Below, piece by piece: positions 18,620 to 64,000 of a stretch of 64,000 nucleotides of DNA. The stretch is from a virus (lineage: Duplodnaviria > Heunggongvirae > Uroviricota > Caudoviricetes): IMG/VR virus record IMGVR_UViG_3300029305_011610, positions 13,395-77,394 of that record. One strand, written 5' to 3'. The translations under genes and the position numbers were made by a program. The stretch's first letter is position 1. The number at the start of each line of letters is the position of its first letter. The notes beneath the pieces are model-generated. The model searched no databases and was not told where the DNA came from. It was given only the letters and a program-made list of their open reading frames with translations.

Positions 18620-18652
18620 CTCCCTCCATATATATCCCGCCGGAAACCCTCG

Positions 18653-18679
18653 TCGAAGCGTTGCATCGCAACGCCTCGA
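18653..18679. repeat. Conserved palindromic hairpin (copy H1)
   Basis: TCGAAGCGTTGC-ATC-GCAACGCCTCGA, about 35 bp upstream of the 18619 gene start. Confidence 0.55.
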
Positions 18680-34648: not shown

Positions 34649-34661
34649 ATGTTAATCTGAG

Positions 34662-36936: not shown

Positions 36937-37011
36937 TGGCAGGGATGGCTGGATTCGAACCAGCGAATGACGGAGTCAAAGTCCGTTACCTTACCGCTTG
37001 GCTACACCCCT
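36937..37011 (-). tRNA. tRNA-Gln (anticodon TTG), CCA encoded
   Basis: AGGGGTGTAGCCAAGCGGTAAGG...ACGGA-CTTTGAC-TCCGT...GCTGG-TTCGAAT-CCAGC, typical bacterial Gln architecture. Confidence 0.8.
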
Positions 37012-37169
37012 ATAAAGGCGGCTACTCGCGCCGCCATGTGTGTTTTCTTTCGGATACTCCTACATCAGCCCGTGGTTATCACACAACCCCAAATCTAGCT
37101 CCGCAGGTCGTCGGAAGCTGATCCCGTCACCTGTTTCAACGCTACGATAACAGTCTTGCCGCTACCGCA

Positions 37170-37243
37170 TGGCATGGAAGCTCGGAATCGAACCGAAATT
37201 AATAGTTTTGGAGACTATCGTTTTACCATTAAACTACTCCCAC
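37170..37243 (-). tRNA. tRNA-Trp (anticodon CCA), CCA encoded
   Basis: Anticodon arm ATAGT-CTCCAAA-ACTAT, D-arm GTTT..AAAC, T-arm TTCGG-TTCGATT-CCGAG. The acceptor stem has two G·U pairs. Confidence 0.7.
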
Positions 37244-37342
37244 AAATGAAACAAATGGGCGGCAGAACCGACTATAGTCTACTCTTTAAAGCTAAGAGGA
37301 AAGCTTAACCTCACGCCAGAATCCCTAGCGCTACCCATTAGA

Positions 37343-37425
37343 AACTTTTTTATGGTGCCGGTAGCGAGACTCGAACTCGCACGAGTAAACACGAGCTCCT
37401 AAGACTCGCGTGTCTACCAATTCCA
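37343..37425 (-). tRNA. tRNA-Leu (anticodon TAG), type II, CCA encoded
   Basis: GCCGGTATGGTGGAATTGGTAGACAC...CGAGT-CTTAGGA-GCTCG, 11-nt variable arm, GCGAG-TTCGAGT-CTCGC. Confidence 0.8.
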
Positions 37426-37439
37426 CCATACCGGCGTGA

Positions 37440-37515
37440 TGGTCTGAGTAGAGGGATTCGAACCCCCGACATCCTGTTCCCAAAACAGGCGCGCTACCAA
37501 CTGCGCTATACCCAG
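37440..37515 (-). tRNA. tRNA-Pro (anticodon TGG), CCA encoded
   Basis: CCTGT-TTTGGGA-ACAGG anticodon arm. GGGGG-TTCGAAT-CCCTC T-arm. Confidence 0.8.
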
Positions 37516-37520
37516 ATATA

Positions 37521-37598
37521 TGGAGCTGGTTGTGGGGATCGAACCCACGACCTCCGGATTACAAATCCGGCGCTCTAACCAACTGCAGCTAAACCAGC
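37521..37598 (-). tRNA. tRNA-Thr (anticodon TGT), CCA encoded
   Basis: GCTGGTTTAGCTGCAGTTGGTTAGAGC...CCGGA-TTTGTAA-TCCGG...GTGGG-TTCGATC-CCCAC. Confidence 0.8.
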
Positions 37599-37828
37599 GT
37601 GCTTCTGCGAGCTTATGCACCCTTTTTGGCATCAGAACTCGTACCATTAGCTACGAATAACATAGGTATGGATTTACACCATACATAGTGTCTTATTGGA
37701 ATTGTGTGCGCACACGCCTCCAGATTCTCACACCTGAATCACTTGCGTCTACCTATTCCGCCACTACATTTCTTCGCAGCCGCAGGGAAGGCTTTACCTT
37801 CTCAAGCATAATTTAATCATCACTTACT

Positions 37829-37916
37829 TGGCGGAGCAGAGAGGGTTCGAACCTCCGCACGGATTACCGCCTATCTGATTAGCAATCAGACCTCTTCACC
37901 ACTTGAGTACTGCTCC
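37829..37916 (-). tRNA. tRNA-Ser (anticodon GCT), type II, CCA encoded
   Basis: GGAGCAGTACTCAAGTGGTGAAGAGG...TCTGA-TTGCTAA-TCAGA, long variable arm, GGAGG-TTCGAAC-CCTCT. Confidence 0.8.
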
Positions 37917-38067
37917 ATGCTGTGTCACGAATAATGTATACTATTCGGGACAAATTGGTATGAGTGGGCCATGGCCCGTCCATGTACCCACTCTGCTTTG
38001 TCGTCTCTTCCGACTTGTCAAGATCGGTTTTCATAATCTCACACTCCGCAAAGTGTAGCCCCTATTG

Positions 38068-38159
38068 TGGCGCGGATAGAGGGATTTGAACCCCCGCACG
38101 GTAGTTAGCCGCCTAGCGCTTTTCAAGAGCGCACTCTTCAACCGCTTGAGTATATCCGC
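38068..38159 (-). tRNA. tRNA-Ser (anticodon TGA), type II, CCA encoded
   Basis: GCGGATATACTCAAGCGGTTGAAGAG...GCGCT-CTTGAAA-AGCGC, long variable arm, T-loop TTCAAAT. Confidence 0.75.
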
Positions 38160-39495: not shown

Positions 39496-40647
39496 TTAAT
39501 ATTTTAGATCTGACTTGATTGCCGAAACAATATCAACTCCTACCTTTCTACTGATATGGTCTACCATCTTATCTATGGTTTCTTTTTCAATCATTCGGTA
39601 GTAGTTTCTATGCCCTTCAAGCACTCTTATATCTGTCTTTTCCCACGGCGTCCCATTTAATCTATCCAACGCATAGTTGGTTAGCATTGCTTGGAACTCC
39701 TTTTTCTTCTTATACCCAATCGTAATATCATTGTTGGAGTTAAGCATTACACCCAGATGTCTGTTTCGCCCAGCAGACGATCCGTAAGTAGTCTTTTCCT
39801 TCTTGATAATAAATGGGGCATTGAAGTAGCTAAGTGTATTTGTGATCAGCTGCTCAACTAACTTCACATCGAAGTCTCGCCTTGAAGAAATGATGAAGTC
39901 GTCTGCATATCTTGTATACACAAACGACTGGTTGTTGTAGTTATGAAGCATTTTAGTTAACGCATGGTCTACTGGGATCATCATTATATTTGTGATTAGC
40001 GGAGAGATCGGTGTTCCTTGAGGCAATCCGCCGTTCAAGAATGCAAGTTCAAGGGCAGTTTCGAGCTGCTGCCTACCCACAGTATACTTAACCACCTCTG
40101 AGAATGGAAAAATCATTGAAAACTGCTTCATCACAAATTCAAGCGTTGTGCTACCAAAGAAGTCAGACAAATCGAACTTGCCGAACCACTTACTCTCGTT
40201 CGCTTGATGTTTTTTGATCGCATCTATTGTGCTTCTCTTTTTCACATAAGCGAACGCAGAGGTGTGATACAGTGCATGAAAATCTTCTTCAAAGATAACT
40301 TTAAGAGTTCTCAATGCTTCCATCAGTTCGGGATTTGGTGCGTCGATTCTTCTATAACCTCTCCCGCTTTTCTTGGGCTGATAAAAAGTACGATACTGAT
40401 CCTGTCTCGGCCTGCTTCGCAACTCTTCTGTTTGCTGATTAAACACAACCAGCTTAGAGATAAGCAAGGGGATATTAACACTTGCCAGCATTTTATCGCT
40501 CACTTGCTCCACACAGTATGTTCTGGTAGATGTAAATCTGCCCGCAGAAGGTACAACCGGTTCGCGAATCGTGGCTGTTGCGAACAGCAACTCTTCCAGT
40601 GTCATCTCTCGAAGTACAGGAGCGTTTTTTACTGTTATGTATACCAT
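39496..40647 (-). CDS. Reverse transcriptase (retron/group-II-like RT domain, 383 aa)
   Basis: RT motifs GLPQGTPISPLITN (motif 4), VYTRYADDFIIS (YADD, motif 5), IKKEKTTYG...RHLGVMLN (motifs 6–7, retron VTG-like), and a distal HRNYYRMIE (thumb/X-like). Confidence 0.85.
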   Translation of the reverse strand: MVYITVKNAPVLREMTLEELLFATATIREPVVPSAGRFTSTRTYCVEQVSDKMLASVNIPLLISKLVVFNQQTEELRSRPRQDQYRTFYQPKKSGRGYRRIDAPNPELMEALRTLKVIFEEDFHALYHTSAFAYVKKRSTIDAIKKHQANESKWFGKFDLSDFFGSTTLEFVMKQFSMIFPFSEVVKYTVGRQQLETALELAFLNGGLPQGTPISPLITNIMMIPVDHALTKMLHNYNNQSFVYTRYADDFIISSRRDFDVKLVEQLITNTLSYFNAPFIIKKEKTTYGSSAGRNRHLGVMLNSNNDITIGYKKKKEFQAMLTNYALDRLNGTPWEKTDIRVLEGHRNYYRMIEKETIDKMVDHISRKVGVDIVSAIKSDLKY

Positions 40648-44529: not shown

Positions 44530-44616
44530 TGGTGTCGGAGACGGGATTCGAACCCGCACGTGATCAATCACACCAGATTTTAAGTCTGGGTTGTCTCCCA
44601 GTTCCACCACTCCGAC
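44530..44616 (-). tRNA. tRNA-Leu (anticodon TAA), type II, CCA encoded
   Basis: GTCGGAG...CCAGA-CTTAAAA-TCTGG, variable-arm hairpin GTGATTGATCAC, GCGGG-TTCGAAT-CCCGT, acceptor CTCCGAC-A-CCA. Confidence 0.75.
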
Positions 44617-47048: not shown

Positions 47049-47159
47049 TGGTGGGCAGGGGTGGGCTCGAACCACCAAAGCTACAGTAACCACATGCGCG
47101 CCAAGTCCATATAGCAGAGATTTACAGTCCCTTGCTTTAACCGATTTGCATACCTGCCC
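47049..47159 (-). tRNA. tRNA-Tyr-like (anticodon GTA) with about 39-nt variable region; possible pseudo- or interrupted tRNA
   Basis: Perfect acceptor GGGCAGG/CCTGCCC-A-CCA, anticodon arm AGGGA-CTGTAAA-TCTCT, T-arm GGTGG-TTCGAGC-CCACC. The variable region is about 25 nt longer than any normal Tyr tRNA. Confidence 0.5.
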
Positions 47160-50472: not shown

Positions 50473-50871
50473 TTACTCAATGTTCTGCAGAAAATCCAGC
50501 AGAGAAAACAGGACGGTATATTCGCATCCGTCTGCGGGTTCTTCTTTCTTAGCCTTACGCTCTTCGACGAGCTTTGCACGATGGTCGTAAACCATCTGCA
50601 TAAAATCGCAATCAGATACCGTCTCGATATCGATTACTTCGCCGGTTTCAGGATTAATCATGTAATCGATATTAACGAAAACCGCAGGGTCTGCACTCGA
50701 AGGTGCGCCAACGATAAGCTTCGCCATGATCTTAAAATCCTTTTCGGAAACCACTCCAGTATTATTACGGACATTCCAAATCAGATCGGGATTGACGATG
50801 GCATTTTCCTCATAAACTCTCAGATCGGGGCTGTTCTTGTCGATGATAACAAACTTTACAAACTGACTCAT
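50473..50871 (-). CDS. Hypothetical protein (start probably at MSQFVKF with RBS GGAGGT)
   Basis: ORF 50473..50892. The internal ATG at about 50871 has the better RBS. Confidence 0.5.
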   Translation of the reverse strand: MSQFVKFVIIDKNSPDLRVYEENAIVNPDLIWNVRNNTGVVSEKDFKIMAKLIVGAPSSADPAVFVNIDYMINPETGEVIDIETVSDCDFMQMVYDHRAKLVEERKAKKEEPADGCEYTVLFSLLDFLQNIE

Positions 50872-51151
50872 TAAATACCTCCGTAAGATCAAATATTGAG
50901 CAGAGCGATTTCAAGACGCTTACAAAACCCTCGAATATGTAATGGAAATAATCCTTTTTATTGGTTGAGCTGACTCAAAACCGCTCCGCTCTTGCGTATC
51001 GGATATAAAACCCTCACTCTGCGTTACCACGGGCTTGTGACCGTTCTGATTTATCGGTGATAAACCAAAGCCGCATTAAGGGAGGGCGAGAGAAAAAACC
51101 ACGAAAACTCTCGCCCTATATCAGAAAGGAGGTAATAATGTAGAAATCCTA

Positions 51152-51349
51152 TTAAATCAGAGCGTGAGCAACATGGCCGCTACCCCACTCTACGCGAATT
51201 CGCTGAGAAACCGAATTGCCGATAATCCGAATACCATCGGAACATCTTGCTATGTACTTGCCGTCCTCGATAGAGAATCGAGCTGAAATACCGCCGCCAG
51301 CCTTGGCGATAATCGCATTGACGCGCTTCTGAAAAACCTCGTATGCCAT
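51152..51349 (-). CDS. Hypothetical small protein
   Basis: 65-aa ORF. Confidence 0.4.
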   Translation of the reverse strand: MAYEVFQKRVNAIIAKAGGGISARFSIEDGKYIARCSDGIRIIGNSVSQRIRVEWGSGHVAHALI

Positions 51350-51952
51350 AGATTACACCTCAAAGAAATCCCATGTCGGGTCGATTGCCATTCTTGCAAT
51401 ACCGTAGATCATATATCCGCCACACATTGTGGCCATAACGAAGAAAGCCAACATGACATCACCTCAAAATCAATCTACTTCGCTGATTTCATAAGGCTCG
51501 TGCCCAAGCTCAAGCATATATAAAATCGCAGCTGTTGAAGACTCTGCCTCGATCAGCTTATGGTTTGGATAACCATCCCTGCTGTCGATAAACCGAACAC
51601 TATAAGTTTTTCTCATTTGACCACCTCAAGATCAAAAATCGCTCCACTCTGCGTTATACGGGCTTGTGACCGTCCTGAGTAGAAAACCACTCAAGGCCGC
51701 ATTAGAGCCGACTGGAAAACCACAGATAAACCGTGTTTAATTCACCGCATACGGCCAGCCACCCATAGGCGTCCAGTCTGCTCGCTCGGACTCATTACAA
51801 AATCCACCATATACGGATATAGTCAGTTCATAGACTCACTGACAGTCCCTCAAGAACCAAGGTTGCCGGGTTTACGGATTAGGCTGCTTGATACATTCTC
51901 CCATCTGCGTTTTAGAGGCTTTGGACTCTTTGGTTAATAAACCAAGCCGCAT

Positions 51953-51975
51953 TAGAGCGGGGCTGGAAAACCAGC
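51953..51975 (-). terminator. Hairpin terminator downstream of 51997..52743
   Basis: GGGGCTGG-AAAA-CCAGCCCC, immediately 3' of the stop. The minus-strand trailer is T-rich. Confidence 0.55.
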
Positions 51976-51996
51976 CCCGGTGATACTCAAAAACCA

Positions 51997-52743
51997 TTAC
52001 TTCTTGATGGTCTTGTAGCCGTCGACGGTGTAACCCTTATTGGTCACGATTTTGTGGCAAATCTCAGCCAGATAACCAACCAGACGCTTATCGTTTGCGA
52101 CGGTCACAGTCAGAGCCTTGCGGGACTTACGGGAATACACGGACATCAGGAAATTGACATCGTGAGAAACCGCCTTATAGCCGTCCCCGAGCATAGCGGT
52201 GATGATAGACTGCAGAGTCTTGAGCAGATTGGTCTTGCTCGTGGGGGTCTTACCGAGATCAATCTGTCTTGCGATATCAGAAATCGCATAACTGTCGTTG
52301 ATACTCTTGGGGTTAATACCCAGATCGACCGCTTTCTGCACGGTCAAAAGCAGATTCAGCTTGCGGGCCATATTGAGCCAATTCTTATCGGCTCCGATAC
52401 CGCCGCAATGGTCGTGGAGCTTGATAAGGTCAATCTGAACCAGTCTGTCCTCGATACTGCGAACGGGGACGGGATTGTCGTCGGTAACGGGGGAATCCTT
52501 AACACAGATGGTGGTAAAGCTCAGCATTTCGATAGCCTTGAGCATGGGATTGGGAGCCGCCTTACACTCGTCAAAACACATCTTGCGAGTGATAGAGGTA
52601 TACTCATTGATTTTCTCGGACATAACCTTGTCAGCAGCAGTAGCGGCTTCCATGTTCTTCTCCTGAATCGCCTCATTATAGGCGATAACCTGTACCTCAA
52701 TTTCAGCCTTGAGGTCAGTCAGCTTCTTCAGATTTTCGTTCAT
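51997..52743 (-). CDS. Hypothetical protein (higher-GC codon usage)
   Basis: 248-aa ORF. C-ending codons are preferred, unlike the left 49 kb. Confidence 0.55.
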   Translation of the reverse strand: MNENLKKLTDLKAEIEVQVIAYNEAIQEKNMEAATAADKVMSEKINEYTSITRKMCFDECKAAPNPMLKAIEMLSFTTICVKDSPVTDDNPVPVRSIEDRLVQIDLIKLHDHCGGIGADKNWLNMARKLNLLLTVQKAVDLGINPKSINDSYAISDIARQIDLGKTPTSKTNLLKTLQSIITAMLGDGYKAVSHDVNFLMSVYSRKSRKALTVTVANDKRLVGYLAEICHKIVTNKGYTVDGYKTIKK

Positions 52744-53241
52744 AATAATAGTCTCCTTTCGGTTTGTCGGTGGTTTACACTCAAGCGAATAGCCGAGCGG
52801 TAAAACTCGGCTATCCTATCAATGCAAACACTCCGTCTCATAACCGAAGTGTTGATATTTATTTAGGTTCGCACTACTCACGAACTTGACGGAGTTTTGT
52901 CCTATGGCGGGCCGTCCCGCCGAATAGCTCAATACCAGTTCCTCGGAACTTGACACCCTTGGGTGGGTATTTTGCATAGGGGCGGACAATACTCCGATCC
53001 ATTCGCTTTTATGTATAGCCATCAGTTACTCAAGCCGAGCTTAGGTTCATAGGCTCAAACCTGATGCCATTTTCACTATCTGGCAAACGACGCCTTGCTC
53101 ATAATTCGTCGTGCAAGGTTGACTCAGAGTGAATTGATCGCATTTAGGCTCACTCAAGGGATATAACTCCCAACCCGCCTATGCCATCGCATAGACTACG
53201 GCTGTTAACGACTGCCTCTTTGTCGGCTCTTTCGAGCTACT

Positions 53242-53476
53242 CTGTCGGCGGCGGTGTGCCGTCACTGACTACCGCAGACAGTCAACCACCGCCCCCTGTG
53301 GGCTTGTGGTGCGTCGTGCGGCTGTCGGCGGCGGTGTGCCGTCACTGACTACCGCAGACAGTCAACCACCGCCCCCTGTGGGCTTGTGGTGCGTCGTGCG
53401 GCTGTCGGCGGCGGTGTGCCGTCACTGACTACCGCAGACAGTCAACCACCGCCCCCTGTGGGCTTGTGGTGCGTCC
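53242..53476. repeat. Three tandem direct repeats of 80 bp
   Basis: Unit CTGTCGGCGGCGGTGTGCCGTCACTGACTACCGCAGACAGTCAACCACCGCCCCCTGTGGGCTTGTGGTGCGTCGTGCGG begins at 53242, 53322 and 53402. Each unit contains the small palindromes GTCACTGAC and GACAGTC. Confidence 0.9.
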
Positions 53477-53492
53477 GCTGCGAAAAAAGGGC

Positions 53493-53530
53493 AAAAAAAA
53501 GACACCCCCATTTTTTGGGGGTGTCTTTTT
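53493..53530. terminator. Strong bidirectional intrinsic terminator
   Basis: AAAAAAAA-GACACCCCC-ATTTTTT-GGGGGTGTC-TTTTT. Lies immediately 3' of the minus-strand regulator gene. Confidence 0.8.
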
Positions 53531-53539
53531 GTCCAATAG

Positions 53540-54556
53540 TCAGCGAGTTAATGCAATGTGTCCGCCGTCATTTGTAGCAATGCCGCTTTTCAGTGCTTTT
53601 GATTGAATGGCGGTTAAGTGTTTCACAACGCCTTGATGACTGATTCCAAGATAACTTGCGATTGCCCTAATTCCATAGCCACGCATACGAAGCTCTACAA
53701 TGTGAGACTGTCTATCAGTCAATTCCATTGCGCTAATCATGCTGTCAAGCTCCCACATAGAATCAGTGTCGCCGCTTGTGTAGTTGCCGTGATTATCATA
53801 GCCGCCTAAATCTGCAAAGCGCTTCATGCGGCGGTACACAGTTTCAAGTGCGTCGCTTTCGGTGTCTGCGGTCAATTCTTCAAGATACAAGTATCCGTTG
53901 CGTGGGTCAGTTCTGACTGCGCGTGAGCTGTCGATATACTTTCGAGTTGCGGCGTATACCATAACGATTGGCGTCGTTTCATCGTCCACCCATGCGGCGG
54001 TATCGGTGTCTTTAATAAGTACACGGCGGTTAATGCGACGGTTGACGATAGGTGCGGTCAAATAGCCTACACCGTTGCAAGCGTATTTTTCGGACATTTC
54101 CAACAGTGCGCATATAACTTCGTGCTTAATTTCCAAGCCGTCACCAAGCCCACGCACAATCAGAGAATTAAAACGGCTTTCCGCTTCGTCATCGAGTACA
54201 ACGGAAACAAATTCACCGTCATTATTGAATTGATGACCAAAGGCGGCATTGCCGCTGTCGGTCAGATTGCGAAGCATTGCACTATCGGCGTACAGTTCAC
54301 GGCGCAATTCTGCAATATGGGGATTGCAACCGCCTTTTGTAACAGTTACACGCTTTTCAGCGGCTTTTCCCTGTGGGTCATAAACCTTTTTCAAAACGGA
54401 GCTTGCGACAGCCTGTGCGAGTGTATCCAATTCAGCACCACAACCGTTTGCGCCGTGGGTGATGTATGCAGTTTCAAAAGCTGTCAGCAGTTCATTAAAT
54501 GCGGAGTATTCGTTGACTTCCTGTGTGTTTTCGGTTAAAATGTTAATGTTGTTCAT
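53540..54556 (-). CDS. Regulator with C-terminal sigma-70 region-4/LuxR-type HTH (ORF extends to 54673; start probably MNNINIL)
   Basis: C-terminus LTDRQSHIVELRMRGYGIRAIASYLGISHQGVVKHLTAIQSK. Compositionally GC-rich. Confidence 0.6.
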   Translation of the reverse strand: MNNINILTENTQEVNEYSAFNELLTAFETAYITHGANGCGAELDTLAQAVASSVLKKVYDPQGKAAEKRVTVTKGGCNPHIAELRRELYADSAMLRNLTDSGNAAFGHQFNNDGEFVSVVLDDEAESRFNSLIVRGLGDGLEIKHEVICALLEMSEKYACNGVGYLTAPIVNRRINRRVLIKDTDTAAWVDDETTPIVMVYAATRKYIDSSRAVRTDPRNGYLYLEELTADTESDALETVYRRMKRFADLGGYDNHGNYTSGDTDSMWELDSMISAMELTDRQSHIVELRMRGYGIRAIASYLGISHQGVVKHLTAIQSKALKSGIATNDGGHIALTR

Positions 54557-55484
54557 GGTTTTACCTACTTTCAATTGATGTAAAAAGCATGAAACACACG
54601 CCCGCCGATGGTTGCCGCCGTCGGTGGGCTTTTCATTTTGTCCAAAATGGGAATGCTGTGTATCACTATTCAATTTTCAAGGTGCATTGCATGGGGTGGG
54701 GTGTGCGCTTGCTACGGTCTACCCTTGCGCCGTTCGGCTGCGAGTGGGGCAGTGTGTCGGTGCAGTGACACGGCTTGTTATGTGGTGTCGTGTGTGCGGT
54801 GACTGCGTAGCCCGTGGGGTGTCACCCTGTGGGGGTGTGCCTGTGGGGCGTGGGGTAGGATTGAATTATTATGTTGTAGCATGACCATATTATCACAGAC
54901 AGTCAACCTATGTCAATACAGTCTGCAAAATTTGTTTCCCGCCATACCCCCGGTGTCGTTAACCTGGTACGCACCCTTGCAAGCTGCGGAAAGCACAGCC
55001 GGTTGAAAGTCACAATTTACCACTATGTGACATTGACACAAAATATGGGGGTGTATTTTGGTTATTTTGACCCCCTATTCAGCGGTACGAATTGGATAGT
55101 CGCTCCATCTCCCACACCCATCCACACATCTCGCCTCTCGCTTTTACAAACTTTTTGAAATAGTTTTCTTGGCATTTCTGTTCATTTTTTATGCACTTAA
55201 ATAACAATTCAACTCCTTTTTCTTGTTTATAAATTCATTAAATTATCCAATGTCACAATTTGATCAATCCTGCATCAACCCTCGTCATCTTGTACAAAAA
55301 CTTTCTAATTAATTTGTGCAATTTATTTTCATTAATCTAACTTGTATTTTATAGACAACTTCCGGCCATGTGATATACTATAATTACAAAACAGTTATAT
55401 GACCAAAGTCGGTCAGTGAATTTGGAGTTATCTCCTTTTTTAAAACAGTTTTCAATCCAGTTATATTACGAATAGGAGGATACA

Positions 55485-56297
55485 ATGGCAACTATCATCA
55501 AGCTGGAAGACTTCAGACAAGACACTATTAATGTAGCAGTATTACAGACAAACAATCGTAAATTAAGAGCTGGTCTTATATCTCCAGCAGTAGAGGAATA
55601 TCATCAAGATATCGCTCCGGAACATACATCCGAACCAATTAAGAGTCTGGATGATATTAATCGTATTTCTCAGTATCTGATCCAGAAGAAGAGGTATAGG
55701 GATAATATGTTGTTCATTGTTGGTATTAACTTTGGATTACGAGTAAGTGACTTACGACTGCTGAGATTTTGTAATTTAATAAATGATAATATGACATTTA
55801 AAGACACATTTCCAGTATTTGAAAAGAAGACTCGTAATACACGTAAACATAAAAAGAATAGATATATCACAGTCAATGACGCAGTAGTTGAATCTGTTGT
55901 CTTATATCTGGAGAATACTCCAAATGTAAAATTAAGTGATTATATGTTTATGTCTGAGTCTAATAGAGGTAAGAACGGAGACCAACCTCTGGACAGATCT
56001 ACGATTGATAGATTACTTAAAGGCATAGCAAAAGAATTAGATTTAACTATGAAGGTATCTACTCATACTTTAAGAAAGACTTTCGCTTATCATCAGATGG
56101 TTATGTCCAATAATGATCCAAGAAAATTATTACTATTACAGAAAATGCTTGGACATTCATCTGCCGCTCAGACGTTGGATTACATCGGTATTACAAATGA
56201 AGAAATTGAAGAAGCTTACCGTAATCTGAATCTTGGTTCTAGATATAATTATTTAGTTAATAGTCAAATGATTGAAAGAGAGGTTGAAGCTGTATGA
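55485..56297 (+). CDS. Tyrosine recombinase/integrase
   Basis: R-box GLRVSDLRLL, HTLRKTFA (H-x-x-R), LGHSSAAQTLDYI (catalytic Tyr). Promoter-like TGATATACTATAAT upstream. Confidence 0.85.
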   Translation: MATIIKLEDFRQDTINVAVLQTNNRKLRAGLISPAVEEYHQDIAPEHTSEPIKSLDDINRISQYLIQKKRYRDNMLFIVGINFGLRVSDLRLLRFCNLINDNMTFKDTFPVFEKKTRNTRKHKKNRYITVNDAVVESVVLYLENTPNVKLSDYMFMSESNRGKNGDQPLDRSTIDRLLKGIAKELDLTMKVSTHTLRKTFAYHQMVMSNNDPRKLLLLQKMLGHSSAAQTLDYIGITNEEIEEAYRNLNLGSRYNYLVNSQMIEREVEAV

Positions 56298-56444
56298 ATG
56301 GATCTAATTATAACAAGTCACCACCAATCTTTCATTCTCTGGAATTCTATATTTAATTAGATAATTACTCACTCCGTTTCACTTCGTTTGGTCATTATCT
56401 AATAGAGTAATTACTGGGATATTTTTAGTAAAAAACGAAATGCC

Positions 56445-56471
56445 TCGAAGCGTTGCAGCGCAACGCCTCAA
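56445..56471. repeat. Conserved palindromic hairpin (copy H2)
   Basis: TCGAAGCGTTGC-AGC-GCAACGCCTCAA. A T7 run lies 15 nt downstream. Confidence 0.55.
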
Positions 56472-56544
56472 CGACTTGGCTACTACTTTTTTTGTTGTTA
56501 AACACGATTTTTCTGCCTTATTAATAGGCGCGAAGGAGGAGATT

Positions 56545-57777
56545 ATTATCATCAAAATATGTGACGCTATCATGGGCACCGGCAAGACTCAAGCATCGAT
56601 AGCGTACATGAATGCAAACCCTGACAAGAAGTTTATTTTCATTACACCATACTTGGACGAGGTTAAGCGTATAAAGAACGACTGCCCTGCTCTGAACTTT
56701 GCAGAACCTAGCCAAAAGGTATCTGAGGGAAATTATACAAAGACTGGGCATACCGCCATCTTAATTGAGGAAGAGCGCAATATCGTTACAACTCACCAGG
56801 CTTTTAAGTATTATACAAATGAAATGCTAGACAAGATTCGAGAGATTGGATATACCTTATTCATCGATGAGAGTCTGGGTGCTCTGGAAAAGTGCGAGGT
56901 TAACGTCGGCGACCTAGAGCTGTTGATTCAGACAGGATACATTAAGGAGGTTGAGGACGGCGAGTATTCGCTAATCAAAGATGATTACGATGGAGAAGCC
57001 TTTTCTGATGTATTCCGAATCCTTAAGTCAAGAAATCTTAGACGTCTTAGCCGTTTAGGTGATGTCGAGCTGTTCTATTGGTCTCTGCCAGCTGATATGA
57101 TTGCTGCTTTTAAGGATGTATTTCTGCTTACGTATCAGTTCGAAGGGCAGACCATGAAGGCAATGCTAGATATGAATGGAATGCCATATGAATTCATCGG
57201 AGTAGAAAGAGTCGATGGTGGCGGGTTTCAATTCTGTGACGGCCCAGGATATGTTCCTGAGTACGTAAAGAATCTTCCAGATATGATACATATAGTGGAT
57301 AATAAGAGAATGAATGAGGTTGGAGAAAAATATCATGCCCTCTCTCTTTCTTGGTTTGAAAAGAATGCTTCCGAAGTCCGCCAGCTTAAAAATAACTTAT
57401 ATAACTATTTCACTAATGTTGGAAGGTCGGAACCGGCCAGCGAGAGGATGTGGAGCACTTTTAAACGCGCTCACTCAAAGCTTAAGGGCAAAGGGTATAC
57501 AAAGCAGTTCACAGAGTGCAACCTCAGAGCAACAAATGCATACCGAAATAAGACCAGGCTGGCGTACTGCGTAAACCTATTCATGAATGTTGGAGAGAGA
57601 ATGTATTACCGCAATCACGGAGTTGAGATAGATGAAGACTTGTACGCCCTATCCAATATGATTCAGTGGATATGGCGTAGCGCAATACGTGATGGCAAGC
57701 CGATAACCGTATACATACCAAGTAGAAGAATGCGGACTCTGCTGATTAACTGGATCAATGAAGTAAGTGGGAATTAA
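56545..57777 (+). CDS. P-loop NTPase (Walker A GTGKTQ, Walker B LFIDES), function unknown; start uncertain
   Basis: Track ORF starts at 56440 but runs through the palindromic hairpin. The strong RBS AAGGAGGAG at 56533–56541 is followed by in-frame ATT/ATC codons at 56545–56553. The first in-frame ATG (56572) has no RBS. Confidence 0.6.
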   Translation: MIIKICDAIMGTGKTQASIAYMNANPDKKFIFITPYLDEVKRIKNDCPALNFAEPSQKVSEGNYTKTGHTAILIEEERNIVTTHQAFKYYTNEMLDKIREIGYTLFIDESLGALEKCEVNVGDLELLIQTGYIKEVEDGEYSLIKDDYDGEAFSDVFRILKSRNLRRLSRLGDVELFYWSLPADMIAAFKDVFLLTYQFEGQTMKAMLDMNGMPYEFIGVERVDGGGFQFCDGPGYVPEYVKNLPDMIHIVDNKRMNEVGEKYHALSLSWFEKNASEVRQLKNNLYNYFTNVGRSEPASERMWSTFKRAHSKLKGKGYTKQFTECNLRATNAYRNKTRLAYCVNLFMNVGERMYYRNHGVEIDEDLYALSNMIQWIWRSAIRDGKPITVYIPSRRMRTLLINWINEVSGN

Positions 57778-57789
57778 TATACAATATAT

Positions 57790-58017
57790 TTGAGGAGAAA
57801 ACGAATGAGTAAGAAGAGTAAGAGAGAAGATCGTTTTTGTAAAGCATGTTTGTTTTATGATTCATGTGACTATCGTGTATTGGGAGGCTGCTTCTCCCCT
57901 ATTGATACTGACGGCGACCTTGAGGTTGAGAAGCTAATTGAAGATAACCGCATGTCATACAGAGCTGAATACTTTAGTTTTTTAGAACATATTGCCGATG
58001 ATGGCTTTAATTTTTAA
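57790..58017 (+). CDS. Small Cys-containing protein
   Basis: 75-aa ORF with a basic N-terminus and CKACLFYDSCDY. Confidence 0.4.
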   Translation: MRRKRMSKKSKREDRFCKACLFYDSCDYRVLGGCFSPIDTDGDLEVEKLIEDNRMSYRAEYFSFLEHIADDGFNF

Positions 58018-58061
58018 TCATATCATTACAGTTATATTACCGCCGAAGGGGGCAAAAATAT

Positions 58062-60800
58062 TTGAGTAAACAACAAGCATGCCAGAAATACATATTCAAG
58101 TTACACAGCAGCAGATTAAAAGCAGCGAAGTGGAAGTTAACATTATCACTCCAAGAAGCCAGAAAAAACGATGAAATCATCGCATTAGCCGATAGCCAAG
58201 TACTTAGATGGCTGGATGAGCTGAATGGCGTCGTAGATTGTGAGCGCAGAGCTCGTGAAATCAAGTCTGAGATAAGAAAAATAAGAAAAGAGCCCAGCTC
58301 ACCTCAATACAGAAAAGCTCTCAAACAACAGTATGCGTTGTTAGACGCAGTACAGTTTAAGCCAGATTATATGTGCTTAATTATAGATAAAGAAAAAGAT
58401 TACCACCGTGCATGCAAAGGGTTTAGCATTAATGGGATTAGCTACAAACGATTGCTCGGCACAAACGGTGGCATCAAGAATAGTACCATCGTGTTTGTAA
58501 GTGAAAGACATATCGATGAGATCAGGCGGCGCATAGATAACGGAAGAGATATGACAGTGGAGCTTGTTCCGGCCAAGCTGGAGGCGTATAAGGCACTAAC
58601 CTGCAGTGCATCCATTCCGGTGTCCATGCCAAACGGAGTTCTTGTAGTACCGGATTGTGAAACTAGATTTAAATCAGACTTTATTTATCTGACAGACGAG
58701 TGTGACGGTGAACCATCCATGGAACTTAAAATAGATGAGATTGTAGAGTTAGATGAGTCCGACGGTTATGGTATCATGCTCCCCTCTTTAGCTCAGCGAT
58801 GGAGCGACGAGCTGCATTTGGATTACATGATGAGCGGGGCTAATACAAGATGCTCGTGGGAAAAGGGTATGGTATTCACATTCGATTTCATTGATTTCGC
58901 AGACAAGGTGGCAGGAAAATATATCGTAAAAGATGCTTGGGGAAATGATGTTGATATTAGAAACGTCGAGTTAGTATTAACAACCTCAATGTTAAAACTA
59001 TGGGATTCATATAGTAGTTGTGATGACTATCTACAGAACTGTATAGAAAATGGGTATTCATTTTGTATAACTAAGACTTGTCCAAAGGAATTGGAGCGGG
59101 AGAGAAATCTAAACTACCAGTTTATCCAGAGCTACGACCTGGATGATGACGATATTGAAGAATTGATTGCTCCAACGATGAACGAGATAAAAGACATTCT
59201 CGGAGGAGATTGGCGCAAGACAGTTCTTTATCTAAAGGGTGTAGGATTAAATGAAGATAATGTTGACGTACTTGATGATGACTGGATAAAGGCAATAATG
59301 ATAGAACCTAAGTTGATGGAAGATCCTTATATTAAGAATAAAGTGTATCAGCTGATCAAAAATAGAATCAATCAAGCTAAGGTGGGGGTGCTTAAAGTCC
59401 ACGGCAACTATTCCATCATTTCTGGAGATCCTTATTCTTTATGCCAGAGCATCTTTGGTCTAGAGGTTACTGGCTTACTTAAAGCGGGAGAAATACATAA
59501 TAAATACTGGTGTGATACTGGAGCCGATAAGCTAGTTTGTTTTAGAGCACCTATGACAGCTCATCCAAACATTAGAGCGGTTAAGCCAACTCGTGACCCA
59601 GACGCATTATATTGGTATCAGTACATGAATACATGCACGATTTTCAATTCTTGGGATACTGCAGCACACGCACTCAATGGTGCAGACAAGGACGGTGATC
59701 TGGTGATGCTTACAGATAATCCTGTATTAGTTCGTAAGCATAAAGAGATGCCTGCAATTATGTGTGCGCAGCGCAGAGCAGTTAAAAAAATCGTTACAGA
59801 AGAAGATGCAATCTACGCAAATATAGCCAGTTTCGGAAATGACATCGGCAAAACAACCAACTGGATAACATCCATGTTTGAAGTTCAGTCTCGTTATCCA
59901 AAAGAAAGTAAAGAGTATAAGACGCTTGAATATAGAATCATGTGTGGCCAATTATACCAACAGAACACGATAGATAAGGCAAAAGGTATCATAGCAAAGC
60001 CAATGCCGAAAGAGTGGCATGATTGGTTTGCAATCAATAACATGGATGCCGATGATGATACTAAGAATTTTTACAGATCGGTAGTTGCAGAAAAAAAGCC
60101 ATATTTTATGTGTTATATATATCCGGATTTAATGAAGTCCTATAAAGACTACACTACATCAGTTAGCCGTATTTGTATGCAAAAATTTAATAAGACAATC
60201 GATGAGATTAACCAGACCCCTTTTGAAAAGCTTACAGAAGAAGAAGTCTCATATGTGAGCTATGTAAAAGCAAAGTTTCCCGTCGGAATGGGAGACTGTG
60301 TAATGAACAAAATTTGTAGACGATTTGAAGATGAGTTTGATAGTTGCATTAGAAACGCAAGAATGAAAGACGACTTTGATTACTCTATTATGAAGAGCGG
60401 CGCTGATATCCCTTATAATCGACATCGTTACTCTGCGCTTAAGCTTTGCTACGCGGAGTACGCTAAATCTGTGAAACAAAAAATGTCCGTTATGTCTAGA
60501 CAGCGAAAGGATAATCCAGAAATATCTGATTGTTTGCGAATACTCAGAGATGGATTCTCCCGCGATTGCGACCTAATCTGCAGCAACGAAGTAGAATTAA
60601 CTGACATGTTGATGGATATATGCTATCGCAAAAGCTACGCCAAAGATCTTATGTGGTCTACAAGGTCAGAACAGATAATAAAGAATCTGTTACTACATAA
60701 TGGGGAAAAAATTCACATTCCAACACAAGACGAGAACGGTGATGTGAAATACTGTGGAAAGAAATTTATCATTATTACAAAGGATATGGAGACTATTTGA
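58062..60800 (+). CDS. Two-barrel (double-psi beta-barrel) RNA polymerase, YonO / cellular-RdRP-like, 912 aa
   Basis: KLVCFRAPMTAHPNIRAVKP...NSWDTAAHALNGADKDGDLVMLTDNP. The DxDGD metal-binding motif sits in the context seen in RdRP/YonO-type single-chain RNAPs and the multisubunit RNAP beta-prime NADFDGD. Confidence 0.65.
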   Translation: MSKQQACQKYIFKLHSSRLKAAKWKLTLSLQEARKNDEIIALADSQVLRWLDELNGVVDCERRAREIKSEIRKIRKEPSSPQYRKALKQQYALLDAVQFKPDYMCLIIDKEKDYHRACKGFSINGISYKRLLGTNGGIKNSTIVFVSERHIDEIRRRIDNGRDMTVELVPAKLEAYKALTCSASIPVSMPNGVLVVPDCETRFKSDFIYLTDECDGEPSMELKIDEIVELDESDGYGIMLPSLAQRWSDELHLDYMMSGANTRCSWEKGMVFTFDFIDFADKVAGKYIVKDAWGNDVDIRNVELVLTTSMLKLWDSYSSCDDYLQNCIENGYSFCITKTCPKELERERNLNYQFIQSYDLDDDDIEELIAPTMNEIKDILGGDWRKTVLYLKGVGLNEDNVDVLDDDWIKAIMIEPKLMEDPYIKNKVYQLIKNRINQAKVGVLKVHGNYSIISGDPYSLCQSIFGLEVTGLLKAGEIHNKYWCDTGADKLVCFRAPMTAHPNIRAVKPTRDPDALYWYQYMNTCTIFNSWDTAAHALNGADKDGDLVMLTDNPVLVRKHKEMPAIMCAQRRAVKKIVTEEDAIYANIASFGNDIGKTTNWITSMFEVQSRYPKESKEYKTLEYRIMCGQLYQQNTIDKAKGIIAKPMPKEWHDWFAINNMDADDDTKNFYRSVVAEKKPYFMCYIYPDLMKSYKDYTTSVSRICMQKFNKTIDEINQTPFEKLTEEEVSYVSYVKAKFPVGMGDCVMNKICRRFEDEFDSCIRNARMKDDFDYSIMKSGADIPYNRHRYSALKLCYAEYAKSVKQKMSVMSRQRKDNPEISDCLRILRDGFSRDCDLICSNEVELTDMLMDICYRKSYAKDLMWSTRSEQIIKNLLLHNGEKIHIPTQDENGDVKYCGKKFIIITKDMETI

Positions 60801-61570
60801 TGGAAATTATTTTAAACGAATATGAATGGGCAAAGGGAGTAATTGAGAGCGGTAACTTGCGCGGAGTTCCACGAACATCACTTTCTATAGTTGCGAAGTA
60901 CTATTACCAAGAAGGTGCGAAGACGGACGAAGTACGCAGGTTGCTACACGAACTACTAGTCGATGATGGGTATGATCTGCCATATATGGTTGCAAATGAA
61001 TTAGTGGAGGATGCGATTAAAGTGGGGAAAAAATTTAAACTTACTGTTATAGATAGCGTCGTAATTACTAAGACTGAGCTGGAAAAAATCGGGATGCTTA
61101 AAAAAGCTCAATTAAAGCGATTGGCTTTCACTCTGCTTTGTCTTGCAAAGTTCTTTAGAATTCGTAATGGAGCAGATGGCTGGGTAAGTTTCCCAATTAA
61201 GTCCATTATGAAGCTAGCTAATATCAATGAAAGTGTAAAGAGACAAGATCAGCTTTATTATCAGCTAGGACAGCTTGGAATGATTGAATTCTCAAAAAAA
61301 ATAGCAGATATGAGCGTTAGGGTTACATATGAAGACGAAAGCGGAGAACCAGCCGTATTCATCACAGACTTCAGAAATCTTGGATACCAATATGAAAGTA
61401 TATATTCTAAGAAGTTCATTGCATGCGAAAAGTGCGGAGCAGTAGTAAAAGAAAAGAATCATGGAAAGGCTGGACGCAAACAAAAGTACTGTTCTGAGTG
61501 CGCTCCCATTGTAAAGGCCGAGCAAGATGCGGCTTCATGGCAGAGACGATATTTGGGAACTCCGAAATAA
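60797..61570 (+). CDS. Hypothetical protein with C-terminal zinc ribbon
   Basis: CEKCGAVV...CSECAP. 257 aa. Confidence 0.5.
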   Translation: MMEIILNEYEWAKGVIESGNLRGVPRTSLSIVAKYYYQEGAKTDEVRRLLHELLVDDGYDLPYMVANELVEDAIKVGKKFKLTVIDSVVITKTELEKIGMLKKAQLKRLAFTLLCLAKFFRIRNGADGWVSFPIKSIMKLANINESVKRQDQLYYQLGQLGMIEFSKKIADMSVRVTYEDESGEPAVFITDFRNLGYQYESIYSKKFIACEKCGAVVKEKNHGKAGRKQKYCSECAPIVKAEQDAASWQRRYLGTPK

Positions 61571-61579
61571 TTACCTCAG

Positions 61580-61606
61580 TCGAGGCGTTGCAGCGCAACG
61601 CCTCGA
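61580..61606. terminator. Conserved palindromic hairpin (copy H3), terminator-like
   Basis: TCGAGGCGTTGC-AGC-GCAACGCCTCGA followed by GGCACTTTTCC. Same element at 56445–56471 and 18653–18679. Confidence 0.55.
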
Positions 61607-61667
61607 GGCACTTTTCCGGCGTGTTATATATGGAGGAGAATAGAGACCTCCAAATTGAAATAAAGGA

Positions 61668-61892
61668 ATGAAAGAGAAAATGATTAAAATTAATGCAGAC
61701 GAAAAGAAGGCAATTGTAGAGAAATTCCCCGATCTCTATATCGTACGTACTATGAAGGGCGATTCTAAGAGACACCATTATTACATGGAAGAACGACGGC
61801 CCGCCATGAATATGTTACGAAAACTTAGAGAGCAGGGACAGTATTTCGGCCCCGAAAAGAAGACTTCAAAACGTGGGAGGGGCAAAGATTGA
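61668..61892 (+). CDS. Small basic protein
   Basis: 74-aa ORF. Confidence 0.4.
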   Translation: MKEKMIKINADEKKAIVEKFPDLYIVRTMKGDSKRHHYYMEERRPAMNMLRKLREQGQYFGPEKKTSKRGRGKD

Positions 61893-63094
61893 TTGAACAA
61901 GGAAACGTTCTGCTAAGACGCGAAAACGAGACCGCCTTCCAGCACCATCGTAGACTTGTGTATGGCAAGCTTGTAGATAAGACATTGTCGGATTACGATT
62001 ATGCCGAGCTATCACCTTATATATACGGTGAAGCTCTATCCGGAGACTCTGTGCGAAAGCTTATGTATGGCAGCAGAAGGACTCTCGAACTATTCGATAG
62101 TGATGTAGCAAATAATAACGCTAATGCCGATCTAAGCGGCGAATTAGATACAAAGCTCATTGAAATAAAAAAAGAGCGGCAAAAGCTTAGCGACTATCGA
62201 ACCGCATTTAATAAGGTTGTTCGCGAGCGTTCACGTCAAGAAGAGCTCAACGAAATCATCGTTGACGCAGTCCGCAACGGTGAGCTTCCAACGCTCGATT
62301 ACTCACCACACATTTCCATACAGTCCGATAACGACTTACTTGTTAGCCTAAACGATATTCACTTCGGCGCAAACGTAAGTAATGCGTGGAATGAATACAA
62401 TTCTGATATTTGTAAACAAATGATGTGCAGATATCTCGACCATATTATTTCAATCGGAAATACACATCAAAGCGAAAATTGCATCGTTTGGATGAACGGA
62501 GATATTATCAATGGTCAAAACCATTATAGCGTTGCCGTCTCCAATAGAGAAAATGTCATTGAACAAGTTATGGGTGTGTCTGAATTGGTGTCAGAATTTC
62601 TCGCCGAGTTAAGCAATCACTTTAATTCTGTGACATTGGTATCTGTATCTGGTAATCACAGTCGATTAAACCCAAATAAAGATAAGACAATTTATACAGA
62701 GAGACTTGATGACCTGATTGAATGGTATATCAAGGCAAGACTACAGAATATTCCAAATATTAATTTCGAATACGATAAGATTGACACAACTATGTATACC
62801 ATAGATATTCGTGGCAAGACATACTGTGGTATTCACGGTGATTACGATGGATCGGATTCTAAAATACAGGCATTGCAAACGATGGTAGGAAAGCCTGTGT
62901 ACGCAGTACTGGCAGGACATCTGCATCACTGCAAGGTTGATACGATTCAAGGAATTAAGTATGTAATGGCCGGCAGCTTTTTAGGTGTCGATGATTATTG
63001 TGTTCAGAAAAGAATCTTCGGCAAACCGGAACAAATGGTCTGCGTGTGCGGACAAGACGGTATAATTTGCCACTACGATATTGACTTAAGTTAA
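61889..63094 (+). CDS. Calcineurin-like metallophosphoesterase (SbcD/Mre11-like fold) with N-terminal coiled coil
   Basis: Motifs LNDIHFG (D-x-H), WMNGDII (GD), SGNHSR (GNH), GHLHH. Confidence 0.7.
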   Translation: MIEQGNVLLRRENETAFQHHRRLVYGKLVDKTLSDYDYAELSPYIYGEALSGDSVRKLMYGSRRTLELFDSDVANNNANADLSGELDTKLIEIKKERQKLSDYRTAFNKVVRERSRQEELNEIIVDAVRNGELPTLDYSPHISIQSDNDLLVSLNDIHFGANVSNAWNEYNSDICKQMMCRYLDHIISIGNTHQSENCIVWMNGDIINGQNHYSVAVSNRENVIEQVMGVSELVSEFLAELSNHFNSVTLVSVSGNHSRLNPNKDKTIYTERLDDLIEWYIKARLQNIPNINFEYDKIDTTMYTIDIRGKTYCGIHGDYDGSDSKIQALQTMVGKPVYAVLAGHLHHCKVDTIQGIKYVMAGSFLGVDDYCVQKRIFGKPEQMVCVCGQDGIICHYDIDLS

Positions 63095-63155
63095 TACATA
63101 TGCGTCCGGGTTGTTTCTCGGACGCTTTTATATTTTCAAGGAGGTGACTTGCGGA

Positions 63156-64000
63156 ATGGCAAGACGCACAAAGATGAATTCCATCACAAGCCCAGAGCTT
63201 TTGGCGCAGGTCAATCCTGAGAACACACAATTACTAAATGAGTTCTTAGATTACTTGCGGTCTCTTCAAAGGAGCGAGACCACAATTAGGGCGTATGAAA
63301 ACGACATCCAGATCGCATGGGTCTGGAGTTTACAACACAACGGCAATAAGTTCTTTATTGACTGGACTAAGCGAAACGTTGTTGCGTATCAGAACTGGCT
63401 TCTTAACAATAATGGAAATAGCCCAGCTCGTATTCGGCGACTGAAAGCGTCCCTTTCAAGCTTAGGAAATTTTATAGAATCAGTTTTAGATGAAGATTAT
63501 CCTTCATTTAGAAATATTATTCTGAAAGTTGAAAGTCCTGTTAATCAGCCAGTACGAGAGAAGACCGTATTTACCGAGGAACAGATCGAGGGCTTGCTAA
63601 GAGAGTTAACTCATCGCGAACAGTACGATAAAGCGTGTGCGGTAGCGTTGGCAATGTATTCAGGCAGACGAAAGTCAGAGCTTTTAAGATTTAAGGTAAG
63701 CGACTTCGATGAGGATAAGCTCGTTTGCAATGGAGCACTATATAAAAGTTCTCCTATTAAAACTAAGGGACGCGGTGTTCAGGGTAAACAGCTTGCATGT
63801 TTTACACTAGCGAAAAAATTTAAGCCGTATCTAGACAACTGGATTAGCTATCGAAACGAAAACAGTATAGAAAGTGAATGGCTATTCCCTAACAGAGAAA
63901 ATCCATCCGAACAAATGAGTATATCCACACTTAACAGTTGGGCGAAGACATTTACGAGAATTTTAGGTGTCGACTTCTATTGGCATGCAATGAGACATGC
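63156..64000 (+). CDS. Tyrosine recombinase (XerC/D-like), partial; runs off the window end
   Basis: N-terminal SAM-like core-binding domain, R-box ALAMYSGRRKSELLRF, and HAMRH at the window edge. RBS AAGGAGGTGA. Confidence 0.75.
   Translation, partial: MARRTKMNSITSPELLAQVNPENTQLLNEFLDYLRSLQRSETTIRAYENDIQIAWVWSLQHNGNKFFIDWTKRNVVAYQNWLLNNNGNSPARIRRLKASLSSLGNFIESVLDEDYPSFRNIILKVESPVNQPVREKTVFTEEQIEGLLRELTHREQYDKACAVALAMYSGRRKSELLRFKVSDFDEDKLVCNGALYKSSPIKTKGRGVQGKQLACFTLAKKFKPYLDNWISYRNENSIESEWLFPNRENPSEQMSISTLNSWAKTFTRILGVDFYWHAMRH

Follow-up and report, generated by a model that had tools for sequence, protein, structure and literature searches.

The locus considered here raises the question of which kind of RNA polymerase (RNAP) is encoded at positions 58062-60800 of a 64,000-nucleotide (nt) stretch of tailed-phage DNA (the window; IMG/VR record IMGVR_UViG_3300029305_011610, positions 13,395 to 77,394), and which genes that enzyme transcribes. 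An initial annotation, made from the letters of the window, had proposed a two-barrel RNAP related to YonO of the Bacillus prophage SPbeta and to the eukaryotic RNA-dependent RNA polymerases (RDRs), lying in a self-contained transcription module between two recombinase genes. The follow-up described below indicates, with a probability of roughly three in four, that the gene encodes a catalytically competent, single-chain, two-barrel, DNA-dependent RNAP of the SPbeta YonO family, carried by an SPbeta-like phage or prophage of ~130 kb from gut Clostridia. Among the known relatives of cellular RNA polymerases the YonO type is the smallest, and one such enzyme has been studied so far. The two-barrel superfamily was recognised in 2003 and 2010 (PMC2919709), and YonO was characterised in 2017 by Forrest and others as a processive DNA-dependent RNAP needed by 37 late genes of SPbeta, with a single start site between yonN and yonK; its deletion specifically silences the late genes (PMC5467207). 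Since YonO is the sole studied member, it was fair to call these enzymes poorly characterised, with unknown promoters.

The gene is an open reading frame (ORF) of 912 codons with a TTG start, and gene calling on an identical public contig, L032 (labels of this form denote the loci compared), gives this start and this length too. Both motifs singled out at the outset are present as described: KLVCFRAPMTAHPNIRAVKP occupies residues 490-509 and GADKDGDLVML residues 540-550, with DKDGD at 542-546, and the two lie about 50 residues apart (R495 is 47 residues before D542). The first segment had been called lysine/arginine-rich, a description that does not fit its 2 K and 2 R in 20 residues; the conserved part is R495 and P497. 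The occurrence of the pair is far beyond chance, because the protein matches Pfam RdRP (PF05183) with 49.4 bits (E 4e-13; residues 114-603 on positions 59-502 of the 582-position profile), above the curated gathering threshold of 23.8 bits, matches three PHROG families with E values of 1e-53 to 4e-199, all labelled "unknown function", and has 4,992 database homologs at E<=1e-5. An exhaustive search gave 1,798 clusters at 50% identity, 504 of these at E<=1e-30. Such enzymes are not rare, as had been supposed; the polymerase belongs to the already known YonO-like branch and is an ordinary member of a very large group of gut-phage enzymes, common in gut metagenomes.

By using tblastn against annotated phages, full-length relatives were found in Clostridium phage c-st (41% identity), in six Enterocloster phages (~38%) and in Bacillus phage BUCT082 (30%). 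The same long form of the RNAP (30-41%, full length) is carried by c-st as CST179/CST178 (+CST177), by Enterocloster phages PMBT24 and CB457P1-CB473P3 and by BUCT082, and the deposited c-st record annotates CST179 as a YonO homolog. YonO of SPbeta-like Bacillus phages is 26% identical over residues 119-606 (E 6e-31; tblastn, BLASTP). A profile built from 84 diverse homologs (25-53% identity) aligns to YonO 113-794 with an hhalign probability of 100% (E 3.8e-57, 664 columns), and therefore the homology spans nearly the whole enzyme, well beyond the motifs. The two proteins differ in length (912 versus 839 residues), the window polymerase having ~100 extra N-terminal residues.

A plain phmmer search of the PDB sequences with the polymerase gave no relevant match, and a profile was required; the profile search returned eukaryotic RDRs only (E 5e-5 to 1e-2), in which the DGxG...R....KG block is aligned residue for residue and, among the top hits, DxDGD as well. 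Neither search matched a YonO-type structure in the PDB copy used. The AlphaFold model, calculated from the 84-sequence alignment, has a mean predicted local distance difference test score (pLDDT) of 93.2 and a predicted template-modelling score of 0.90. Compared with the PDB by Foldseek, this model is closest to maize and Arabidopsis RDR2 and to QDE-1 (E 6e-20 to 2.5e-15, ~900 columns; best values 6e-20 to RDR2 and about 1e-17 to QDE-1), followed by Thermus-phage P32 gp64 (4e-6), crAss-like phi14:2 gp66 (1e-4) and then beta'/Rpb1 chains. The predicted structure thus contains the two-barrel catalytic fold. Two outcomes that the initial annotation had named as speaking against it, a lack of double-psi barrels and a DxDGD motif placed in some other fold, were looked for on the model and in the Foldseek results, and neither was seen.

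The minimal two-barrel active site consists of eight universal residues, which in QDE-1 are D709, R738, K743, R962, P964, D1007, D1009 and D1011, equivalent to Rpb2 D837/K979/K987 and to Rpb1 R446/P448 with its three aspartates (PMC2919709). All eight are matched in the window polymerase, in the same order and with closely similar spacing: 29, 5, then 2 and 45 residues, compared with 29, 5, then 2 and 43 in QDE-1, so that the beta-like block has exactly the D709/R738/K743 spacing. Among the 84 homologs there are 19 invariant columns, which include D234, K268, R495, P497, D542, D544 and D546, and R263 is conserved in at least 90%. The beta'-like block aligns to RSP...DNDGD of YonO, with R962/P964/D1007/D1009/D1011 as its QDE-1 counterparts. 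R495 and P497 are the counterpart of the NRxP motif of beta'. Both motifs first noticed fall in a single, beta'-like barrel, and the beta-like barrel is represented by the D234-K268 block. With an active site that appears intact at the level of residues, the enzyme is apparently active. Sequence, invariant active-site residues and fold together identify the protein as a YonO/RDR-like single-chain two-barrel RNAP.

The genes around it place the polymerase in a phage programme. From 55485 to the window end all genes are on the plus strand, and the GC skew changes sign at about 54-55 kb; the plus-strand block described by the initial annotation is thus real within the window, but it is cut by the window edge and not closed by the second recombinase. 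On L032, a stretch of a 131,745-bp metagenome contig of the Joint Genome Institute (JGI) that is 100% identical to window positions 50720-64000 save one 80-nt repeat unit, the strand carries, past the second integrase gene, HU, YonG, genes of the terminase region, a portal-sized gene of 504 aa and YonD. The same order and strand are seen in L002 (polymerase 77% identical), through HU, YonG and terminase to a gene of portal size and one with a YonD domain, and L030 (65%, 120-kb contig) does likewise. In all, the identical contig and about 25 relatives have plus-strand genes that continue into HU, YonG, terminase, portal and YonD. In a tblastn comparison with the SPbeta-like phage Goe12, the proteins of the window and of L002 matched in the order YonV (37%), YonO, YonJ (25%), YonN/HU, YonG, YonF terminase (43%) and YonD; thus the plus-strand block is the head of an SPbeta-type late cluster, truncated by the window edge. 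The polymerase heads the phage late-gene cluster, in the SPbeta yon order, and is not part of a self-contained module.

Over 30 related loci the core order of YonV-like gene, RNAP, p257 (the gene just downstream) and YonJ-like gene is kept in most, and each of the integrase genes (int1 and int2) is missing from many. Relatives were met in metagenome-assembled genomes from Oscillospiraceae and further Clostridia, as well as in the genomes of the isolates Anaerocolumna xylanovorans DSM 12503 and Eubacterium segne BX4; the size of some of their contigs, 150-360 kb, points to a temperate lifestyle.

A second protein is tied to the long-form polymerase. The ATG of p257 overlaps the RNAP stop codon by 1 nt, and wherever a locus has sequence past the RNAP gene a p257 homolog comes next; c-st, PMBT24, E. 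segne and BUCT082 are among these loci. The p257 protein has 587 database homologs and carries an invariant CxxC...CxxC ribbon. The p257 model (pLDDT 93.6) predicts a helical domain, a winged-helix-like unit and the ribbon; a search of the PDB with the whole chain found no significant fold match. In an hhalign comparison (E 2e-5) the ribbon profile falls on residues 794-827 of YonO, its extreme C-terminus, just past the end of the polymerase homology. YonO carries this C-terminal zinc ribbon on its own chain, whereas the window polymerase has no CxxC ribbon and the corresponding element is found on the adjacent p257; in the comparison with Goe12, YonO-type phages have no p257. The separate ribbon marks a long-form subfamily and does not exclude the enzyme from the YonO family. 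Because of this fused-versus-split pattern and the strict adjacency, p257 probably acts together with the polymerase, and it may have a role in promoter recognition.

The strongest comparative support for a YonO-like role comes from BUCT082, a Spbetavirus of B. subtilis, in which the long-form RNAP and a p257 homolog occupy the yonO slot. Its yonN-yonK leader is 90-93% identical to that of the YonO-bearing Goe12, including the interval bounded by the published primer-extension primers. The long form thus stands before a near-identical leader, and the two polymerase forms therefore replace one another in nature ahead of the same late operon. The 515-aa protein encoded upstream in BUCT082 was considered as a YonV relative, and it is not YonV-like.

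The sequence of events that would follow is a two-stage programme. Host RNAP would transcribe an operon of int1, the YonV-like gene, the small protein gene, the RNAP gene and p257 from the divergent region at about 55.3 kb, and this transcript would end at a conserved hairpin just after p257. The phage polymerase, probably acting with p257 (in YonO the zinc ribbon is part of the polymerase chain itself), would then transcribe the late genes, namely those for the small protein, the YonJ-like nuclease, HU, YonG, terminase, portal and YonD, and onward. Late transcription probably starts in a conserved box a few nucleotides downstream of the hairpin. The late-gene specificity of this scheme is taken by analogy from YonO and from the position of the gene, and its promoter and terminator are putative.

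A palindrome with a 12-bp stem, TCGAGGCGTTGC-AGC-GCAACGCCTCGA, occurs in three copies in the window, all intergenic, where chance would give none. A stable hairpin is found at the same position after p257 in about 16 relatives, with folding free energies of -17 to -35 kcal/mol and z scores of -4 to -10. RNAalifold applied to a mixed MAFFT alignment returned no structure owing to register errors, and covariation was counted explicitly on an in-register alignment of 13 copies. In this alignment 88% of the cells pair, compared with 69% after shuffling and 30-50% after sliding of the partner columns; compensatory changes were counted in 11 of 16 pairs, and the covariation score is 0.523 against 0.165 in shuffles, none of 500 shuffles reaching the observed value. 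The four apical pairs (GTTG/CAAC) are invariant and the adjoining C-G pair is kept in 12 of the 13 rows. The position of the hairpin is thus kept with covarying sequence, as expected of a structural element.

Downstream of the hairpin lies the box TTCCGGCGTGTTATATATGGAGG, which reads TTCCGGCG.G.TATATATGGAGG in the window and recurs, with a hairpin at equal spacing, on the minus strand (0 such units expected by chance). At the same place relatives have TTGATG..N..TATAATGAAGG, that is, a TTGATG-N-TGCTTATAATGAAGG-like sequence, and in L029 the post-hairpin box is duplicated exactly, 173 nt apart (13568-13600 and 13741-13773). The hairpin and box unit may mark both the end of the host-transcribed polymerase operon and a candidate late promoter. 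The box core resembles TTTATGA(A/G)GG, which occurs exactly twice in the 33-kb Goe12 locus, both times around the interval of the YonO transcription start site (TSS), a likeness noticed post hoc. Some readings of these sequences were discarded. A regular expression written by hand for the box lacked specificity, and no claim is made that the box is shared with SPbeta, as the profile fails on that region. The TTGACA-like sequence upstream and the TATAAT-like sequence in the box do not form one sigma-70 promoter, their spacing being 23-60 nt even with the hairpin removed. A trio of GTTG-N5-6-CAAC sequences in the SPbeta-type yonN-yonK gap was considered a possible counterpart, at the YonO promoter, of the hairpin apex and was rejected because the published primers put the TSS ~600-800 nt upstream of it. 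In the Goe12 (L004) leader, at 19697-19818 and 18874-19104, these three mini-hairpins are flanked by the direct repeat CAGTTG.CA.GCAACATAAAAACTTG; nearer to the mapped YonO start are two similar long-range inverted repeats, CTAATGTTCATTTA/TAAATGAATATTAG and ATAATAGTCATTTA/TAAATGACTATTAT.

Taking these elements together, a more detailed scheme can be put forward, in which the long-form RNAP and p257 form a two-component enzyme, p257 is a winged-helix/zinc-ribbon specificity factor and late initiation takes place at the hairpin-plus-box unit. This scheme is tentative and, as a whole, rather doubtful; if true, it would supply the missing promoter and initiation factor for the whole polymerase family.

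Several findings weigh against a DNA-dependent late-gene transcriptase working from this element. The match between the p257 ribbon and YonO comprises 34 columns at 77% probability. The nhmmer box profile, built from 14 relatives, recovers its source sites, most of them weakly, and misses the held-out window copies as well as the SPbeta P_YonO region, which leaves the assignment of a promoter weak and in part post hoc; the hairpin has no canonical U-tract and a weak T-tract, which makes its terminator role uncertain, and the sigma-70-like sequence at 55352 is a consensus match in a region where the count of such matches does not exceed that of shuffles. Furthermore, the nearest solved structures and the Pfam family of the polymerase are of RNA-dependent enzymes, and for that reason DNA as the template is an expectation drawn from YonO alone. 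The enzyme could accordingly be read as an RNA-dependent RNAP that copies phage or host RNA into double-stranded or antisense RNA for regulation or counter-defence: RDR2 and QDE-1 are its structural neighbours, the PF05183 threshold is passed, the PMBT24 homolog is annotated "RNA-dependent RNA polymerase" in GenBank, and QDE-1 has both RNA- and DNA-templated activities (PMC9508822). This reading is nevertheless quite improbable. The sole characterised bacterial or phage member, YonO, is a DNA-dependent late-gene transcriptase (PMC5467207), the polymerase is homologous to it over ~680 residues and occupies the same genomic slot ahead of late genes, and neither RNA-interference-type partners nearby nor a silencing-pathway context in the window was seen. 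It is even harder to hold that the polymerase serves replication or recombination by making primers or other transcripts that are not mRNA. The gene adjoins the strand and GC-skew switch and a repeat-rich, GC-rich possible origin, its neighbours encode a Walker-A protein, an SbcD-like nuclease and HU, and QDE-1 acts on single-stranded DNA (PMC9508822); against this, the phage carries its own DnaG-type primase and DnaB helicase (792-3127), loss of YonO silences the late genes in SPbeta (PMC5467207), and the gene order is that of the late cluster.

A different division of labour is conceivable, in which late-gene transcription is the work of host RNAP redirected by the adjoining sigma-like protein and the YonO-like enzyme serves a different or redundant function. 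In its favour, an ECF (extracytoplasmic function) region-4 helix-turn-helix (HTH) is found in the sigma-like protein, which is conserved at the divergent junction in relatives, and the conserved box contains a TATAAT-like sequence. However, the box is without a -35 partner at workable spacing, SPbeta-type phages achieve late transcription with YonO, and no match to the sigma-like protein was found in the Goe12 locus, so that this alternative has a slim chance. The view of the plus-strand block as a self-contained, recombinase-bounded and possibly mobile or invertible transcription module, with which the question began, can hardly be credited. It was suggested by the two tyrosine recombinase genes, by the change of strand and GC skew at about 54-55 kb and by the near-identical palindrome found between int1 and the YonV-like gene and again after p257. 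Yet L032, like relatives, keeps its strand beyond int2 and goes on to HU, YonG, terminase, portal and YonD, many relatives that retain the core block around the RNAP lack int1 and many lack int2, and the palindromes lie inside the block and not at its ends, the hairpin position being kept with covariation. A 12+3+12 palindrome geometry, moreover, does not fit the core sites of tyrosine or serine recombinases. A late-cluster RNAP of the YonO family remains the reading preferred here.

When compared with known systems, the window polymerase shares with YonO of SPbeta the single-chain two-barrel architecture, the ~680 homologous residues, the eight active-site residues and the slot heading the yon late cluster. 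The locus differs from that of SPbeta by the two interspersed tyrosine recombinase genes, by HU downstream of YonJ and by a host among gut Clostridia instead of Bacillus. QDE-1 and plant RDR2 (PF05183) are 12-17% identical to the window polymerase; its context is one of phage late genes and not of RNA silencing, and its template is expected, by analogy with YonO, to be DNA. The non-virion RNAP of Thermus phages P23-45/P74-26 (gp64/gp62) and crAss-like phi14:2 gp66 showed no detectable sequence-level similarity to it and belong to different lineages of the superfamily; gp66 is a virion-packaged protein (2,166 residues in the solved chain), and the window polymerase does not have the character of a giant virion protein with DFDxD. 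The assignment corrects misleading database labels, "RNA-dependent RNA polymerase" and "unknown function", and offers comparative leads, namely the obligate partner p257, the non-coding element conserved where middle and late genes meet and the natural yonO replacement in BUCT082. Neither the link to p257 nor the hairpin/box element was found described in a literature search, and both may be new.

Table 1. Features of the polymerase locus and related elements, in window coordinates.
Feature	Position	Strand	Basis or remark
Second full type A element: hairpin 18653-18679 + box 18623-18645	18623..18679	-	Ends a few nt before the ATG of gene 18116-18619 (-)
Sigma-like protein, 377 aa, ECF region-4-type / LuxR-type HTH, at divergent junction	53540..54673	-	Conserved in relatives, including L002 and L032
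Best sigma-70-like match upstream of the plus-strand genes, TAGACA-16-TATACT with TG	55352..55379	+	Consensus match; candidate host-RNAP promoter for the polymerase operon
Tyrosine recombinase 1 (int1), Xer-like, 270 aa, variable accessory gene	55485..56297	+	Present in ~half of relatives
YonV-like Walker-A protein	56440..57777	+	phrog_2467; PF27199 YonV_C on identical and related contigs; 37% identical to the Goe12 YonV-position gene
Third hairpin copy, type B with different flanks, lying between the int1 and YonV-like genes	56445..56471	+	Loop inverted in the copy at this position in L002
Small Cys-rich protein, 70 aa, just upstream of the RNAP	57805..58017	+	Also called on L032; conserved in L002
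Single-chain two-barrel RNA polymerase, YonO-like, long form, 912 aa	58062..60800	+	Sequence, active site, fold, synteny
Beta-like barrel active-site block, D234 (DGxG), R263, K268 (KG)	58761..58865	+	Conservation in 84 homologs; aligns to RDR2/QDE-1 SDGxG...R....KG
Beta'-like catalytic barrel block, R495, P497, D542/D544/D546 (DKDGD)	59544..59699	+	All five invariant in 84 homologs
p257, conserved partner: helical N-domain, winged-helix-like unit, C-terminal CxxC...CxxC zinc ribbon	60800..61570	+	Synteny, ribbon alignment, model
GC-rich hairpin, 12-bp stem, type A, right after p257	61580..61606	+	Position shared by ~16 relatives; covariation
Conserved box downstream of the hairpin, candidate late-promoter core	61614..61636	+	Second copy; relatives share similar sequence
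Small protein, 70 aa, first gene after the hairpin/box element	61680..61892	+	Also on L032; MI.IN N-terminus conserved in relatives
YonJ-like metallophosphoesterase (SbcD/Mre11-type exonuclease family)	61889..63094	+	Pfam Metallophos_2, phrog_284; 25% identical to Goe12 YonJ; PF27387 YonJ_CC
Tyrosine recombinase 2 (int2), variable accessory gene	63157..64000 (cut by window end; 341 aa in full)	+	Absent from many relatives

In many relatives the polymerase gene is interrupted (L018, L027, c-st as L005, L017, L021, L026 and the Enterocloster CB phages, which match in 2-3 pieces), whereas the window copy is uninterrupted. Group I introns with 88 bits (gathering score 50) lie inside the gene in L018 (6726-7055) and L027 (3667-3998); in c-st the gene is split by a likely group I intron, a sub-threshold, full-length Rfam match of 25 bits between the gene halves (L005 9662-9958). 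Many database fragments of ~545 aa end at residues 542-545, within the catalytic DKDGD. The terminase large-subunit gene, in the same phage just past the right end of the window, also appears split (L033 11812-14637, L032 14822-18303), with a GIY-YIG/NUMOD3 homing-endonuclease ORF between the pieces in L033 and a 624-nt ORF-free stretch in L032. L018 has a third group I intron at 15066-15353.

Regarding the neighbouring genes, the true start of the YonV-like protein is uncertain, its homology beginning near 56560, and no solved relative of it was found. In Goe12 a small ORF stands at the same position before yonO as the Cys-rich protein gene, without detectable similarity to it. The small protein after the hairpin was compared with YonK and has no detectable similarity. 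The int1 product has no sequence link to the integrase-fold repressors of SPbeta and is an ordinary Xer-type recombinase. Further recombinases are a serine DNA invertase (19063-19806, -) and an integrase-family protein (7639-8595, -, weak PHROG match), so that the window holds at least four recombinase genes.

The sigma-like protein may be a phage sigma-like transcription factor. Downstream of its gene, at 53242-53475, a GC-rich unit of 80 nt is repeated perfectly in tandem, 2.9 times; its copy number varies, as L032 lacks one of the units. Exactly at the strand switch and GC-skew turn there is an unusually GC-rich, G/T-rich, ORF-poor stretch with reiterated GTGGGG/GTGTG (54680-55140), which could be an origin or another cis-acting site. 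The 55 kb of minus-strand genes, which encode the primase, DnaB, a ligase, FolD, a PAPS-reductase-like protein, NMNAT, the serine invertase, a reverse-transcriptase-like protein and 12-13 tRNAs, fit an SPbeta-like early/middle region.

Eleven of the tRNA genes form an array at 34572-38159 (-), with one or two outliers at 44530-44616 (-) and 47052-47159 (-). A tRNA-Ile(tat) of 92 nt (36721-36812) and the tRNA-like match of 108 nt at 47052-47159 are unusually long. By the array a 383-aa protein (39496-40647, -) matches a PHROG labelled "polymerase" (E 4e-40) and a reverse-transcriptase family (E 3e-13), and a "drum" RNA (RF02958, 76.9 bits) is embedded within the array at 37035-37144.

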